Shown here piece by piece: positions 3,040-42,853 of a DNA stretch of 60,570 nucleotides. A program made the position numbers and the translations under genes. The notes beneath the pieces were generated by a model that saw nothing but the letters and a program-made list of their open reading frames with translations, did not search any database and was not told the DNA's origin. Origin of the DNA: Atractiella rhizophila (lineage: Eukaryota); the NCBI GenBank assembly GCA_021432655.1, contig MU271461.1, positions 1 through 60,570 on the forward strand, given 5' to 3'. Position 1 is the first letter of the stretch, and every line of letters begins with the position of its first letter.

Positions 3040-5490
<2,451 letters not shown>

Positions 5491-31737: not shown

Positions 31738-33627
31738 GGAATCCATGCTCAAACATCTCTGATGGCAAATCCAGGCTGGAATTGCAGGTATGATGCTAAC
31801 ACAATTCGATGCAACTGTCTGCTCTCAAGACAAAGGAAAGTAGGAATTGGATAATTGCCTGAATGACACGTCTGGCATGATTAATGCCTGTTTTCAGGAT
31901 CCGTACTCTGGAGTTATAACTGATGATTGATCATGAATTTCATGCCTTTTTCATGACCGTATCATGATTCCGTTGTATGGACATGATATGAACGTGAGCT
32001 CTGGAATGTTGCGAAAACACATGTGAATTGCTCACGAGTTCGTCATGACACACTCATATCAATCCCTGGTCTGGCAGCATCAGTTACCGCACCGGCTAGG
32101 ATTGCTAGTGGTTTCAGCAAGTACTTTGCAGGCATGTGTTGGTGCAGTCCCTCGTTTCAAGGACGAGTATTCGAATACTTTAATCTTCACTCATGAAAGT
32201 TACGTCGTCATGAGTTGTCATACCAAGTCCAATCAGAATAACGAAGATGAGCTGGAAGGGCAGACCGCAGCATGATAGCGCCGCTTTCGATCAGTGCTCA
32301 CTCACGTTAATTGTGTGAAATTTCCAGTTACATCTGCCTGAATAATAATGTGAACAATGCTGAAACCATAGAAGGTTACACAGAGCGTGATAGCTCTGGA
32401 TAGCTTGCTTTTGTCACTCCACACTAGCTCAGCTGCCCGTGCGGGCCTAATGGCTAAATTCCTCGCAATCATTTGATCGCTCCTTTAAGCATTATCAGGC
32501 TTTCCAAGTCTATTGCATTTCTTCTCACGGTCTGGCATTTCTCGGTTCCGAAGCGGAGCATCTCAATTGATCAGAAGACACGCTACAACCGCGTGGCAAA
32601 CCTGCAGCCACGTTTACCAGAGAGGCTTCCAGTCTTCCAGACCTTTGCAAACTGATTTCGAGCCATTATCAAGTTGGGAATCGACGGGGCTGACGGAGCC
32701 AGAAGCAGGGCAGTCCAGATTATTGAAGAACCCAGAGTTCCATCTTGTAAAGGAGCCCAAACCCAAACAGAGCGACCAAAGAGCTTGCTTTATTCTCCTG
32801 AGCAAATCTAGAGATCCCTTTGTCCTGGCTAAAGTTGAAGATTCAGATCTCGCAACGTGGTTTCCATGTGGAGAGATAGAATTCGAGGTTGGCATAACAA
32901 AAATCTCACTATAAGAGTAGCCCTTTCTTCTCTTCCCTTTCTTCTCCCACATCCCCTTCACGTCTTGCGGTGCTGTTGGTCAGGATACAGGTTCGTCGGG
33001 ATTCCCTTTCACGTCGTCTGTGCCTTTCCAAACAAATATTTATTTACTCCTTCCCCGTCCTCCAACGCATCCTTCCGAACCCTGATATGTTGTGACGACC
33101 ATTGTTATCCATATCATGGATCTTGTCTAGCCGTGCACCAGTAGATTAGTCCATGTGAACGGCCCATAAAAGACGATGGAGATCTCTCTGTCTGCACAGA
33201 GCTCCATTTTCAAGACCACAAAGGCACTCGTTTCCCTGTGCCTTATTCGCTTTGACTGTGCTCATCTCATTTGCACCTTTTGAAAGTGTATCTTTGTGAG
33301 CTCAGCGAAGGTGTTATCATCATTTTTTCATCCATGTGAGTACATAGCTCCGGTATCCTGCCCAGGCCCAATGTTTTGCTTCGAAGCAACCCGATTGACG
33401 AGCTTCGAGCAGGACGTGACATCAGGCTGGCAGTATAAACTGACATCTCACTTGCCTTCTCTTTTGCTTTCTTCCATTACTTCTCCACTGTCCTCGATTA
33501 CTGATCTAATCTGCTTACAGAATCTTATCCCTATCCTATCTGACGGTCTTCACAGAGTTCTCCTTGTCTCAGGTTTTGTGAGCTTTCTTCTCTCCATTTG
33601 ACATGCGACTGAGTTCATCGACAGACC

Positions 33628-35678
33628 ATGCCTCCTCGACATAGTACCCGCTCGACGCCTGATCCTCACTTCAACGCAACACATTCCGACCTTTATTATA
33701 TTCAGGGTTACCAAGGAGAGCAGGCTTTATCTTCGTCAGTCGGGACTTCGACGAAGCGACATCTCCAACAAAATCACGATACGGTGGGCTCCATCGAGCT
33801 CAATGCCCATGACTTGGATCTGGAATCGCCAGCGGCTCCTCTTCTTGTTCCATCTACGTCGGCTTCAGGTTCTAACCTCTCTCTTGCTTCCACCACGCCA
33901 TCTTCTTCTTGGTGTACCTCTTCAAATGCAGAAAGTCCTTCTATTCATGGATCTCAGATCGGCACAGTCGACAATGAGGTCGAAGTCGACTACGATTATA
34001 CGGAAGAAAGAAAGGCGTCGACCGCTACCGCTCGCCCTTTGAAGAAACCGAAATCCTCCCACGCAAGAAAGGTTCCGCCTAACCACATAAAACGCCCAAA
34101 AAACGCTTTCATACTCTATCGAAGCTGGTTCTGCTCTCAAGAAGGAATGTCGAAGGCTCACGGGGTTCATGACCATCGTGATATTTCCAGGATTGTTGGT
34201 CAGATGTGGAAACAACTTCCTGCGAGCGAGAAGAGGAGGTTTGAGGAAATGGCGGAAGAAGAGAAGGCGGAACACAAGCGACTCTACCCTGACTACAAGT
34301 ACAAGCCCGTGTATAAGAAGACTTTGGCGGACCAAGGCAGAAAACGGAAGAATAAGAGAGGCGCTGAGGAAGATTACGAGATCAACAGGAGATGCATGGA
34401 AATCGCGAATATCATTTCAGAAGAGTCGGTAGGGAACGATCCGGAGAGCTCAAACAGGGTTCGAGAGCGGGTGAAGAGAGAGGTGGGAGAGTTCCCATTG
34501 CCCGGTACGCTACTTCTTCTGTCTTAAAAGTCCAGTACCAATACTTGGGTGTAGAACGATTCGACAAACCTGGCGACATGGTGCACAACTTCGCTGATCC
34601 GACGTACTTCACTCCCCAAACAGCTTCGATGTCTGGGATGGACGACATCCCGGTCTCTGCGGTCGACTACGAAAATATGGAACAGAGCGTCACCAGTGTC
34701 GAGCAGCCAACAGCACGAGCGAAGCGAAGCCGGCAGGCCAAGACTTGGAACGTCGATTCCGTTGTCGCGCAGGACTACCGCTTTCCCACAGCTCCAATGG
34801 AGCCAACGGATCCTACCGCTTACCAGTATCCAACTCCAACTCCAGATTACTCTCTCGCAAACGGGTGGTATCCAGGAACGTCCGCTGACATGACATCTCT
34901 CCTCCAAGCCACAGCCCAAAACTTCGCCGCCGTCACTTCGATCCCACCGACTGCTACCACTGAGTCTGTTGCTCAGACCCTTCAGGCGTACAGTATCGTT
35001 GGACATCCTAATTGGAACGAGCTCCAGCTCCCTATGTCTACGAGCCACCTTTCCTCCGTTATTCCACCCTGTGCCACTATTCCTCCGTACGAATCATATC
35101 TATCCGCTCCACATCAACCTCAGGCGCAATACCCTGGCTTAAAGGAGCTTCCGTTGGTTGGACCTGCGGAAGGAGACAACAACCTCATGTTGCTCGACAA
35201 CGACTGGGCCAACAGGAGAGAAAGTGTTGTGGAGTGGAATCGCGTTGTTCACATGAATCTGGCGCAAGATGGAGGGAGTGTCTTTGGTATCGTCCCGAGA
35301 CCAAGAGAGGACAGCTACGTGAGGCAAGAACGGGCAATGGATGAGGTGAGCCACTCTTTCGACTGCTTTCTGCTAAATTAACAAATGGAATGGAAATAGT
35401 TCCTCAACTATGAAAGCGTAGCTTCGCCAAGTTCCCGTCAATCCTTTGCGGTCCCTGACTTCTCACAATTCCCAACTCAGCAACTCGTCGTCAATGGTGA
35501 ATCTAAAACCTACGTTTACTTGGATATGAAACAAGCACAAAATCCCTCTCTCGTCGAGCAAATCATGGCTTCTGGCAGTGCGTAAATTTTTTCAGCGCTT
35601 TATGTTATCATTGACTTAGTTCACACAGTGGGTGTTGCTTACGAGAATGATGATCCTGAAAGAAGAAATGTAGCGTGA
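33628..35678 (+). CDS. MATA/SOX-type HMG-box transcription factor
   Basis: HIKRPKNAFILYRS...ISRIVGQMWKQL...FEEMAEEEKAEHKRLYPDYKYKP. Three introns, starting near 34505, 35346 and 35578. Confidence 0.9.
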
Positions 35679-37397: not shown

Positions 37398-40300
37398 ATG
37401 AGAACATCTATCGCTTTCTTAATCTCGCTAGCATTTCATCTTTCCTTTCTGTACTCAATATTCGACATCTACTTCATCTCTCAGGTTGTATCCGTGAACG
37501 AAAGATATGGAGCTCTAGATCTTAAGGAAGAAGAGCCGCTCGCAAGGAGACTGGTCCTTTTTGTTGGTATGATTTGTCTCTTTTTCTTGGGCAAGGGAGG
37601 GAAGGAATGATGCAAACATGGAGGTAGTGCGGTGGCCCTGTAGCCGTCAAGGCAGGGAAAGAAGGATAGATATCCATTTGTCAGGCAAAGAGATGGGTGT
37701 CTCAACGAGACACCTAGCCGCGTGCTACTTTTCTTACAAGTCACTACCTTTTGGCCAGTGGGAATGCAAGAGACTTGCTCCTGTTCAACTTCTCTTGCTC
37801 TCCTCGACGTCAACTATAGAACTATGCTTCCCACTTGCGAAGATTTCTGTGGATACTGAGCGAGCGAGCGTATCCTCCATCCAGCCACGTTCTCTTTGTT
37901 CTAGATTAAATCCTCTCATCTTTCTACGGTATGAGTTTATGCAGCCTTAGCAGCCACTGAAGCTAGTGAAGCGAACGCTTTACGAATAACCTTTGCCGAT
38001 CCAAATTGAACACGAGAAACAAAAGCGATGATGATTCAAACTGTTCTACATCTTGAGATTTCTGCCTGACCTTCCTTTCTTCGGAGAGGGAGGACGATGA
38101 AAATCTATGAATCTGAGCTTTACCATGCATCATGTTCCAGGTTTGTAACTTCGCCTGTTGGTAGCAAAACTGCTAAGCTGTAATATATGTACAGTACCAC
38201 TGCAATGCATTTTCATTTTCCATAGCCGCTTTACACGCCAATTCAATTCTCCCTAAAGCGCAACCGGACAGTAAAGCCTATGACACGTATAGTGCCTTTT
38301 TTGTTCATTTTGTCAAAGGTTGAGGACTCTCAACTGCACAATGCTCACCATACTTCATGCACTCTTTCAACGCATCGATTAACTGAGCGTTGGTGCGCAG
38401 GTGACGGTCTACGAGCGGACAAGCTCTTCCAACTCTACCCCTCCCCTCCGTTCACCAACATTTCCCCTCTACCTTCAAGCCTACAACCTCCTCCTCACTC
38501 ATCAGATCGACCAAATGGTCAAACAACGCCAGCTCCCTATCTTCGTTCCCTCATCGAAAATGGCATCGCTCGTTGGGGAGTTAGCCATACCCGTGTGCCG
38601 ACTGAGAGTCGACCTGGGCACGTCGCTTTAATCGGAGGAATGTACGAAGACGTTTCTGCGGTCCTTAAAGGTACTTAATTCTCTTGTCGTTGAGTGGTTT
38701 GAGACAGAGGGGAAGGAAGGATGGAAGCTTAACCCAGTCGATTTCGATTCCGCTTTCAACCAATCTACAGTCACGTACGGCTTCGGCAGCCCCGACATTC
38801 TCCCTATGTTTCGAGAAGGAGCACTGCCGAAAGAAAAGGTCAAAATTTGGACGTACGACGAAGAAGCGGAAGATTTCTCTTCCGACGCAGTTCAGCTGGA
38901 CATCTGGTCTCGAGACAGGATGGTGGCCCTTTTGGAGGAGGATCGACTGCCTTTACAAGAGAAAGGCACAATCTTCTTCCTTCACCTCCTTGGTCTTGAC
39001 ACGACGGGTCATGCCTATCGACCGCACTCTATGGAATATTATCGAAACATACAAGCCGTCGATTCTATCGTTTACGACGTTCAAAAGCGTATTGAAGAGT
39101 TTTATGGCGACTCAAGGACTGCCTATGTCTTCACCAGCGATCATGGAATGTCAGATATCGGAAACCACGGTGACGGTCATCCGGACAACACTCGCACCCC
39201 TTTTGTAGTATGGGGAAGTGGGGTTTCAGACACAACGGTGGCCCAGGAAACAAAAGAAACCTGGGGATTGAACGGAAGGATTGATGTAGAGCAGGCGGAT
39301 GTAGCTGGCCTCATGAGTAGCCTGCTTGGCATTAATGTACCCGCTAACAGTCAAGGACGTATTCCACTGGACTATCTAGCCGCTGATCGTGGGAGGAAGG
39401 AAACCATTCGTTGGAGTGGTGTGCAGCAGAGACTGCAGGAATTTGTCGCAAAGACTGGTACGTAGTCTTCCTAGCTAGGAATTCAAGGTTTTGATTTGCC
39501 ATAGATAATAAACTAAAGAAGAAAGGTCGAGGATTCATTCCATTCGAACCTCTGGCGCTCGAACGTAGGAAACAAAAAGTGCAGATTATTGAGCGCCTAC
39601 TTTCTGAGGAAAATTTTGAGGATGCGATGATTGCGATGGAAGAGCTGCATGGCTTGACGCAAGAGGGCTTGAGGTACCTGCAAACGTAAGTAGCTTGTTT
39701 CGTGCCAACCGGTAAACCAATGTGCGGGATATTGCATAGGTACGACTGGCTACTCCTGAAGTCACTCGTTATCGGCGGCTACACAGGGTCGATCGTGGCT
39801 ACTGCTTTATACGTTTACATCAACTTTGCCGCTTCGGACTCTACTGCCACATTCAACACTGCTTTTGGGGTTGGAGCGGCAGCCTTTTGTGCCATGACAG
39901 CGAAATTCGTGATCGAGGAGGCTCCAGCCACATTTTACCTTTATGCCTTCTTTCCTTGCTTGTTCTGGTCATACGTCATCTCCAACTTCAACACCTTTCG
40001 GCAGCTGTTAGGACGAACATCCGTACCCATGGTGATTCTCTCACTTGCCGCACTCGAATGCATGGTACTCGGCTACTTCAACAGGTCCATTTGGAGCGCG
40101 GCATTGTTTGCGACCTGCCTTTGGGCAAGTGTAGCCCTTGAAGAAGACATGGGGAGTGCCAATACTTCAGATGCTTACAAGGCCGTCGCACTTGTGACAA
40201 CGGCATTTCCATTACTCGATGTTAACAAGGAGGAAAATCTGCTGCTGATGTGAGTTTTGTCATGTTTGCTCCTGCGAACAAAGTAATGAAGAAACCATCC

Positions 40301-41301
40301 AGTTCAAGCGGTGGCCTCCTGTTCATCTCTCTTGGAATATATATACGATATTCTGCGAAAAAGCGGCTACGCAGAGTTCTGACGTATCAGGTTTGCTTCT
40401 CTGTACTGTCCAACGCCATAAATAACAAGTAGTCTAGATTATTTTGATTATAGCTTCTTTGATCATCACAAATTGGGCTGCATGGCGGTTAAGAAGGAAA
40501 ATTGGTCTTGGGCTAGTCACCCAATCGTTGGGATGGCTTGTCCTCGGTGCGTCCATCCAGTTCTCCACGAAAGAAAGTCTGAGGTAGCATCCCAGTGCTT
40601 TCTATCATCCTCCCGCTCTTTACTGGCTTTTGGAAGGCGCAACACTATCTCGATCGACTTTGCGTTCTCGTTCTTACTTTCGCTCCCTCCTTCGTCATTC
40701 TCTCGATCGCGGACGAAGTGCTATTCCTGTTCTGCTTCGCAGCTCTTCTCTATTGCTGGTTCAATGTGGAAATCATGCAAGTCAAGCCCATAAAGTATAA
40801 GGAGAAGGTGAGGAAGTTAGATAGCCATAGCGTCAGAATGGCCGTCTTCTTCCTCGGGTTCCTTCACCTTGCCTTTTTTGGCATGGGGAATGTTGCGAGC
40901 ATATCCAGCTTCTACCTTGAACGTGAGTTTCTATCAAACACTGTAAGAACTAGATACTGAATGGCTGACCAGCTGTTTACCGCTTGGTTCCCGTCTTCAA
41001 ACCGTTCTTGATGTCAAGCTTACTCCTTCTCAAGATATTCATTCCCTTTTTCTGTCTCTCTGCCGTCTTCACGATTCTCAACAGGAAGCTGCGCCTCCCC
41101 GCCTTCGCACTATTTTTCATCGTTTTGGCTCTGAGCGATGTGCTAAGCCTCAATTTCTTCTTCCTTGTTCGAGATGAAGGTAGCTGGTTGGAGATCGGAC
41201 AAACGATCAGTCATTTTTCGATATCTAACTTATTGATTCTCTTTACGACTGTTCTCTTTTGGCTAGGGGAAGGCTTGATGTCGTCCGCTTCCATATCCTA
41301 G
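37398..41301 (+). CDS. MCD4: GPI ethanolamine phosphate transferase 1 (PIG-N)
   Basis: [79 protein letters not shown] and [11 protein letters not shown]. Intron 1 is 37567-38400. Confidence 0.96.
38022..38121 (+). ncRNA. Intronic box C/D snoRNA in MCD4 intron 1
   Basis: Terminal stem AAAGC/GCTTT, box C ATGATGA (38028), D' CTGA (38066), a 10-bp C(UUCG)G hairpin (38070-38093), C' ACGATGA (38094) and box D CTGA (38113). Confidence 0.85.
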
Positions 41302-41483
41302 GCTTAGACTTGATTAATAAAGGGAACATAGAAGGGACAATCGCATCTGAAGGAAATGGAATAATCATATGAGATTAAATGCCACGTTTCATACAACAGT
41401 GAACCACCACAATCGAATGAGACTTCGAGCCTGGTACTTTTTATCGCTAAATTCTACAGGGTATCGAGGATCCGTGTACGCCC

Positions 41484-42853
41484 TCACTCTTCATGTCTGC
41501 CAACTTCTTCTGCACCTTGGACCAAGCAGATGACAGTAGTAATGTCGTCCTTTTTCCCGCCGACATAGTACATCCCCTCCTCCATGGCCTTTTGCTGGAA
41601 CGGAGAGGTGACTGCAAGCTGGTCCTCGCTCACAGCCTTCGCACGAGAGCATAACGCCTCTGATAAAGCTCGTGGCGAGAAAGGTCGTAGCTTAAGCTGA
41701 CCGGCGGCCGATGTGGAGGACGAGGCTGAAGTTGGAGAAGAAAACCGGAGGACTTCATCGAGGATATCGTCATCGAAGAGGTTATCGACGAGCCCATCAG
41801 ATGAAAGAACAATGATGTCGTCGCGTTGAACTTTGACGGTGAAATTTTGGGCATCTTTAGACGGTACTGAGGTCTTTTCCGAAAAGGTGGATAGCTGAAA
41901 TGGATAGTTGAAGCTGTGCTGCTGTTCTTCTAATCTGAAGATGTAGTCTCGACCACGAATGATAAAGCAGCAACAGTCTCCGATATTGGTTAACCGTAAT
42001 TCATCGTTGCGCAGAACAGCGAGAAGTGCCGTCGTACTGCCAACAATTCCCTATCAACCACATTAGGTCTGGAAGCCTCTTATGAATGTAAACATACCTC
42101 TTCTACTGCATCTCGCTTTGCTCTGTCAAACGCTCGCTGCAAAACGTCCTGTGGCTTCACCTCAGCCCAGCCGGCGAAGAGTTCGTCTTCCACATCTTCG
42201 TACCGACCTAACTCGGATGAACAAAGATGCATGATCTTCTTAGCCCACCGTCCAGGATCAGCAAACGCATGATTCCTCATCCCTCCAACTCCATCTGCTA
42301 TTCCCAAAGAATCCGAGCGGAGGAAAAACGCATCCTCTCCCACCTGCTCAGCGAAAGGGCTTTCCATCTCTCGCTCCTTCGCCTTCCCAGTATTTGATTT
42401 TGGGATTCCGAAGCCGCTCGCTTTCAGTACAAAGCCTCCATGATGCTTCCCTTGTTGACGACCTCGGGGAGAGACAGGCTTTGTGAACTCATTAAGCCAG
42501 CCCGTGCGGTGCCGATTAGCGCCTTGGAGATGTATAGGTGTTCCTGAACCTGATAGTTGTTGAAGCGAACTTCCAGGAAGAGAGCCTAAGAACGAAAAAG
42601 AGAGGTTGATTTTGGGTTGGTGTGACGATGAGGGTACAACGGACAGATCCTCTACAGGAGGATCCGAAGACGAAGAGGAGGTAGATGCGGAGGAGTTAGG
42701 GAAGAAGAATGGGTTTGCGCTCGTTGGAGACGATGGTGAAGCCACAGGTCCGTTGTGGAAGGTGCGCGAGGAGGACGAGGAGCTGTGTGAGGCTGACGCT
42801 GAACGTAACCGCGAGGCTAACGTTGCCAGCGAACGGTGATGAGATTTTGACAT
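41484..42853 (-). CDS. PTC7: PTC7-type PP2C protein phosphatase with a mitochondrial-like presequence
   Basis: VGEDAFF...LGIADGVGG, GSTTALLAVL, NIGDCCCFIIR, EEQQHSFNYPFQL and GGKKDDIT. Confidence 0.9.

Follow-up and report, generated by a model that had tools for sequence, protein, structure and literature searches.

A predicted box C/D snoRNA in an MCD4/PIGN intron of Atractiella rhizophila with extended complementarity to helix 84 of the large-subunit rRNA

The 60,570 nucleotides of Atractiella rhizophila contig MU271461.1 (assembly GCA_021432655.1) that were analysed here, which we call the window, contain inside a protein-coding gene a short segment with the boxes and stems of a box C/D snoRNA. 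The question raised by this locus is whether the segment is indeed such an RNA and, in that case, which nucleotide of the ribosomal RNA it would modify. We consider it probable that it is a single-guide C/D snoRNA that is released from intron 1 of MCD4/PIGN, docks on and opens helix 84 of the large-subunit (LSU) rRNA, and 2'-O-methylates A2678. The boxes, the stems and 20 base pairs with LSU 2675-2694 of the same organism are present in the sequence, and the coordinates of all these features are collected in Table 1.

Table 1. Features of the predicted snoRNA and of its host gene, in positions of the window (LSU positions in yeast numbering)
Feature	Position	Strand	Basis and remarks
MCD4/PIGN (GPI ethanolamine phosphate transferase 1), coding exon 1	37398..37566	+	Pfam, homologues
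MCD4/PIGN intron 1, 834 nt, GT..AG, phase 1 (predicted)	37567..38400	+	Homologue alignment
Possible inner intron, 266 nt	37929..38194	+	Motif scan: second GTATGA donor at 37929, CAG acceptor at 38192-38194
Predicted box C/D snoRNA	38022..38121	+	About 100 nt including terminal stem; boxes and stems read directly
Terminal stem, 5 bp	AAAGC 38022-38026 / GCTTT 38117-38121	+	Sequence and fold
Box C, ATGATGA, exact consensus	38028-38034	+	Motif scan; preceded by the usual unpaired G
Extra base-pairing element	38042..38049	+	Complements LSU 2687-2694 (helix 84 base and the nucleotides that follow)
D' guide	38052..38064	+	13 Watson-Crick pairs with LSU 2675-2687
Box D', CTGA, exact consensus	38066..38069	+	Motif scan; sole alternative register considered: CTGC 38062-38065
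Hairpin, 10 bp, C(UUCG)G-closed, linking D' and C'	38070..38093	+	-14.2 kcal/mol
Best box C', ACGATGA	38094..38100	+	Read from sequence; one change from RTGATGA; starts at the hairpin end
Weaker alternative box C', ATGAAAA	38097..38103	+	Two changes; overlaps ACGATGA
Segment before box D	38101..38112	+	Best pairing: 8 pairs, one of them G-U, around LSU A2845
Box D, CTGA (38113-38116), then 3' stem arm	38113..38121	+	Motif scan
MCD4/PIGN coding exon 2	38401..38670	+	Homologue alignment

The preliminary description of this locus had reported C, D', C' and D boxes, a terminal stem and a UUCG hairpin, and had taken them for a box C/D snoRNA with a split guide to the LSU rRNA. All of these elements are present at 38022-38121, and the assignment to the class holds on the boxes, the stem and the complement found in the organism's own rRNA. 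As in other members of the class, boxes C and D lie close to the 5' and 3' ends, respectively, and are closed by the stem, and there is an internal C'/D' motif made of an exact D', a C' with one change and the 10-bp UUCG hairpin. The GA and UGA of this C', which are the partners of D', are intact, and the C'/D' motif would be expected to take the geometry of a k-turn. The window has 13 C..D pairs, counting both strands; a stem of at least 4 pairs occurs in a single one of them, and so does a CTGA preceded by a 10-nt complement to the rRNA; in both cases it is the locus 38022-38121. In simulated windows generated with a Markov model, a C box, a D box, a stem and a 10-nt guide were reached together in one of 200. 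Folded as a whole, the RNA does not stand out (z -0.83, with 37 of 200 shuffles equally good), as expected for the box C/D class. Judged from these sequence features, a box C/D snoRNA of ordinary design, apparently unannotated, is a well-supported reading of the locus.

The guide was compared with 4,904 nt of the organism's own SSU, 5.8S and LSU rRNA, a set from which about 200 nt of the 5' LSU are absent. The genome carries CAGAAATCTCAAGTAGAACA at four places, all of them in LSU rDNA copies. Starting from position 2 before D', the snoRNA forms 13 contiguous Watson-Crick pairs with the LSU rRNA, the class being characterized by a guide that adjoins D or D' and forms at least 9-10 pairs with an rRNA or snRNA; the runner-up match in the rRNA has 6 pairs, and none of 300 shuffles gave a 13-pair match. 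Past a 3-nt bulge on the snoRNA side the pairing resumes, for a total of 20 pairs (13 + 7 or 12 + 8), and an extension of 8 pairs was obtained in 26 of 20,000 shuffles. An unanchored test of duplex energy is weaker, given that -26.4 kcal/mol was matched by 16 of 300 shuffles. The energy of the core duplex is -18.5 kcal/mol, and -25.6 kcal/mol with the extension, versus -5.6 kcal/mol for the hairpin of helix 84. The complement announced in the preliminary description is thus found in the organism's own rRNA and is longer than had been claimed. Only the snoRNA is interrupted, by the bulge; the two rRNA letters not assigned before turn out to be AA, opposite a TT of the snoRNA with which they pair, so that the rRNA side is a continuous 20-mer.

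It is worth mentioning that the guide fits the organism's own letters at LSU 2685-2686, two positions at which the Rfam consensus varies and Arabidopsis differs. Furthermore, positions 38053-38058 of the snoRNA repeat the 5' strand of the organism's own helix 84, and the snoRNA pairs with six of the seven loop bases and with the entire 3' side of the helix, its layout being taken from the Rfam alignment. In the segment before box D no rRNA target above chance was found (156 of 300 and 78 of 300 shuffles were as good), and against U2 and U6 it gave at most 4 pairs; this segment is probably idle.

Position D'+5 is T38061, which pairs with A2678 in yeast numbering (E. coli 2309), and this is, by the organism's own rRNA, the A after CAG that had been pointed out before. 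The LSU numbering was obtained with G2619 of the organism's own rRNA as the starting point, with no indel relative to the Rfam model over this stretch, and the expected letters appear at the published sites 2640, 2650/2651, 2724, 2729, 2791, 2793 and 2815. To our knowledge, A2678 is unmodified in S. cerevisiae and in human. The nucleotide belongs to the terminal loop of helix 84, C2675-A2679 (E. coli 2306-2310), which comes as near as about 3 angstrom to the P-site loop of L11/uL5 (PMC3001080, in part). A consensus C at the start of D' has been reported to fix a single +5 target (PMC5389607, in part).

The comparison of methylation sites comprised fungal, plant and amoeba lists and, for S. cerevisiae and human, the sites that these share with plants or Dictyostelium. 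By its S. cerevisiae number, the equivalent of A2678 is not in the mass-spectrometry table of S. pombe (PMC4605285, supplement 2), and the guide table of N. crassa has no guide at the equivalents 2636 or 2640, at an offset of -42 (PMC2780460). Nor is the A2678 equivalent among the methylated sites of Arabidopsis, tomato and tobacco in the available portions of PMC8583080 and PMC11542601, or in the site table of Dictyostelium in the available portion of PMC8817022, and the main text of the fungal snoRNAome, as far as available, gives no target at alignment positions 3895 or 3899 (PMC5824354). A text search of the 25S and snoRNA literature for the site names A2678, Am2678 and Am2679 found no occurrence, and the literature search found no RiboMeth data in basidiomycetes. 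Taken from sequence and from the lists checked, the predicted target would be new among these lists, four nucleotides from a known plant site.

In the likeliest of the alternatives, the target is the plant-type Cm2682, alone or besides A2678, selected through a degenerate D' box, CTGC at 38062-38065, in a fungal counterpart of snoR148. In this register position 5 (G38057) pairs exactly with C2682, whose equivalent is methylated in three plants, Arabidopsis, tomato and tobacco, as Cm2683, Cm2686 and Cm2685, respectively (PMC8583080, PMC11542601, in part), and is listed for Pyrococcus in a source available in part. A search of the organism's own genome for the plant-type register gave 17 matches, all inspected and none with C/D architecture, and hence no separate guide for C2682. 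Some yeast snoRNAs do use alternative C'/D' folds; yet the two-site snoRNAs of yeast have non-consensus motifs and sites that are 1-2 nt apart (PMC5389607, in part). The sheared pairs require a GA that CTGC does not have, whereas a perfect CTGA comes next and abuts the hairpin and C'. In addition, the guide of snoR148 sits at box D (PMC2875012, in part), with position 5 on C2682, and the guide of A. rhizophila is placed before D', with position 5 on A2678. Position 2682 has no mapped methyl in S. pombe (PMC4605285) and no listed guide in N. crassa (PMC2780460). We favour A2678 over C2682 on account of the box geometry, that is, the exact CUGA of D' abutting the hairpin and the C' with its GA-UGA intact, and we regard methylation of C2682 by this RNA as unlikely.

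For the methylation of A2678, the following sequence of events can be proposed. Expression, assembly and methylation would be as expected from the biology of the C/D class. The snoRNA would be released from intron 1 of MCD4/PIGN, and Snu13, Nop58, Nop56 and Nop1 would assemble on the C/D and C'/D' motifs, as established for C/D snoRNPs. The upstream extra element would dock on the base of helix 84, and the guide, a copy of the 5' strand of the helix, would displace that strand and pair with the loop and the 3' strand. Nop1 would then 2'-O-methylate A2678, five nucleotides from D', and the methyl might stiffen the loop that contacts the P-site loop of uL5.

A duplex of this extent could also be read as that of a folding chaperone, which would mainly hold helix 84 open through the 20 pairs during early assembly of the large subunit, with little or no methylation. 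Yeast snR190 is a precedent for a snoRNA that acts as a folding chaperone, and the pairing over the loop and the whole 3' side of the helix goes beyond the needs of a methylation guide, whose duplex is limited to about 10 pairs. Helix 84 and the assembly of the Rpf2-Rrs1/5S RNP co-occur in the literature, as far as it was available. However, the duplex begins at position 2 before a consensus D', which is the geometry of an active guide, and 4-11 bp of extra pairing are common in ordinary methylation guides (PMC3116282, in part). We therefore hold a mainly chaperoning function to be decidedly unlikely.

As regards the host gene, its protein presents the phosphodiesterase and PigN domains of Pfam, and all five homologues tested align on both sides of intron 1 with nothing between. 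The best 23 full-length relatives bear names of Microbotryomycetes and rust fungi, with 50-58% identity, and from their class we presume a Pucciniomycotina-like host fungus. The GPI-pathway gene recognized in the preliminary description is hence MCD4/PIGN, with the snoRNA in its intron 1. Its being an uncommon host is less of a surprise than had been supposed, given that intronic hosts are the rule in filamentous fungi; in N. crassa, 45 of 55 snoRNAs are intronic (PMC2780460). The terms GPI and MCD4 do not occur in PMC8476143.

The other introns of MCD4 are of about 50 nt, and for one of them (39686-39739) a contig shows the splicing. From the end of the snoRNA to the 3' splice site of the host intron there are 279 nt. 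The usual distance is about 70 nt, and 279 nt is far for an assembly linked to splicing, unless the inner intron is used. This candidate intron has a candidate branch site at 38172-38177, and its CAG is 73 nt past the snoRNA; it is a lead only, as such short motifs arise easily by chance and no read supports it. RNA contigs from four of the 24 runs listed (relatives or metatranscriptomes) cover 37748-37990 and 38137-38425 unspliced; with small query shares and none spanning the snoRNA, they give no evidence either way. A second copy of the snoRNA is located on contig C784, identical over the 100 nt and with flanks of 96.6% identity over 3.9 kb upstream and 99.6% over 0.8 kb. On this identity and the matching flanks, it is most likely the other haplotype. 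The identity of both copies adds little, because a nearby exon is equally conserved.

Some further observations on this gene and its surroundings can be recorded. A pyrimidine-rich TAG acceptor (37902-37904) is separated from the second GTATGA donor by 24 nt (37905-37928), which, spliced in after exon 1, would give an immediate in-frame stop; a poison micro-exon is one possibility, and the opening exon of a separate host transcript another. At 37687-37846 intron 1 has modestly stable folds (z about -2.3 in two 120-nt windows, with -2.4 for the best of 19), including a hairpin near 37690-37720, and the search for a second RNA in the intron gave no Rfam match. A gene of the DOPA 4,5-dioxygenase family (PF08883; 36488-37000, minus strand) is head-to-head with MCD4, their starts being about 400-450 nt apart. 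At 33613-34527 (plus strand) the window encodes an HMG-box protein with a weak score for the MAT alpha1 HMG-box (E 2e-4, below the cut-off).

An Rfam search, advised in the preliminary description, gave no match in the window at the gathering threshold and consequently no known family; with Rfam 15 the best score was 16.6 bits versus a gathering threshold of 45. The families snoR114 (RF01421), ceN65 (RF01648) and ACEA_U3 (RF01848) align weakly through the boxes and the terminal stem, but their scores of 13.8-16.6 bits are below gathering thresholds of 45-55, with E above 1, and the guides do not align; on these grounds membership in any of the three was rejected.

Pattern scans of metagenomes and viral contigs found no homologue outside this genome. 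The metagenome scan returned at least 113 stretches; in none of the matches listed was the guide followed by D', C' and D, and about 26 were one repeated AT-rich coding motif. The pattern demanded the extra element, so that homologues lacking it would be missed. In the viral contigs, the 25 matches, in 13 distinct contexts, included none that was snoRNA-like. Within the organism's own genome, a pattern of C box and guide core had 37 matches, 20 of which were inspected, and one of guide and D' with up to one mismatch had 29, which include the two copies and 27 others, 12 of them inspected; no second guide appeared among those inspected. The available portions of PMC8476143, PMC5040776 and PMC8216456 describe no such RNA.

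That the locus gives no stable RNA, being silent, decayed or merely arranged by chance like a snoRNA, would agree with the four runs, in which no contig spans it, with the scans that found no homologue, with the unusual distance to the 3' splice site and with the one simulated window in 200 with the minimal architecture, but is very improbable in view of the exact C, D' and D, the near-exact C', the perfect hairpin, a guide that fits lineage-variable rRNA letters and 13 + 7 pairs far beyond the 10-nt guide of the simulation, the identity of the two haplotype-like copies counting for little.

Other observations refer to the rDNA and to the genome in general. In G000:C109 (L007), at about 41000-42700, the region of helices 80-84 in an LSU rDNA copy is covered by a tandem repeat of about 285 nt, and non-rRNA sequence comes after the peptidyl-transferase loop; either this copy is decayed or interrupted, or the assembly is faulty here. 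In G000:C25 (45640-62492) there are rDNA pieces with single-base differences at conserved positions, and pieces of LSU and SSU are spread across several contigs; these scattered and divergent pieces suggest collapsed or degenerate copies. The U6 genes (L200-L202; G000:C38, C11) are of 118 nt versus a model of 105 positions, and at least 4 copies pass the cut-off. Many matches of the genome patterns have an almost identical partner on another contig, which would fit an assembly with two haplotypes.

As for its significance, this is a known class of RNA with a new predicted site, and no new mechanism is involved. The prediction is a precise one: an Am at A2678, in the loop of helix 84 beside the P-site loop of uL5. 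If true, it would add one more site to the eukaryotic modification map and would suggest that helix 84 is methylated in plants and, four nucleotides away, in this fungal lineage as well. A more far-reaching proposal is that of a snoRNA family confined to a basidiomycete lineage, in which strand invasion of the whole 3' side of helix 84, the methyl on A2678, the timing of the folding of the central protuberance and release through the nested 266-nt intron would be combined. If so, a loop nucleotide facing uL5 and the P-site tRNA would be methylated as in no eukaryote checked, and the output of the snoRNA would be tied to a two-step splicing of the essential GPI gene MCD4; we find this combination highly unlikely. 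According to the literature available in part, the snoRNA sets of basidiomycetes are annotated almost only by homology to ascomycete families, and lineage-specific guides are consequently invisible. In the survey of Canzler et al. (2018), innovations were within reach only along the branches that lead to its five starting species, and for this reason a family specific to a basidiomycete lineage would have been missed by it (PMC5824354, in part).

The nearest of the known guides, the Arabidopsis snoRNA AtsnoR148 / At5gCDbox136.1, directs 25S Cm2683 (old Cm2673; yeast 2682; PMC2875012, in part). It is similar to the predicted snoRNA in its long duplex with the same stretch of helix 84, of 18 bp compared with 13 + 7 here (PMC8583080, PMC2875012, in part). 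In contrast, and comparing by description, snoR148 has its guide at box D, measures 84 nt, is a single gene and targets a C four nucleotides downstream.

A parallel in design, with different sequence and target, is offered by the yeast snoRNAs with extra base-pairing. In C/D snoRNAs this pairing adds 4-11 bp and increases methylation up to five-fold in yeast, and it has been proposed that the extra pairs help to open structured rRNA (PMC3116282, in part). For this reason, what had been called a split guide is a feature already described. The predicted snoRNA has, adjoining the target of its guide, a second rRNA-complementary element of 7-8 pairs. The yeast snR75, snR76, snR47 and snR60 likewise combine C, D', C' and D boxes, a D'+5 target and a second element beside the target, and in snR47 and snR60 the extra element is flanked by the guide on one side and by box C or C' on the other, as in the snoRNA of A. 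rhizophila (PMC3116282, in part). Finally, intronic snoRNAs of 70-125 nt with a single D' guide are the commonest type in N. crassa (PMC2780460), and the predicted RNA, intronic, with a single D' guide and of about 100 nt, matches that type.
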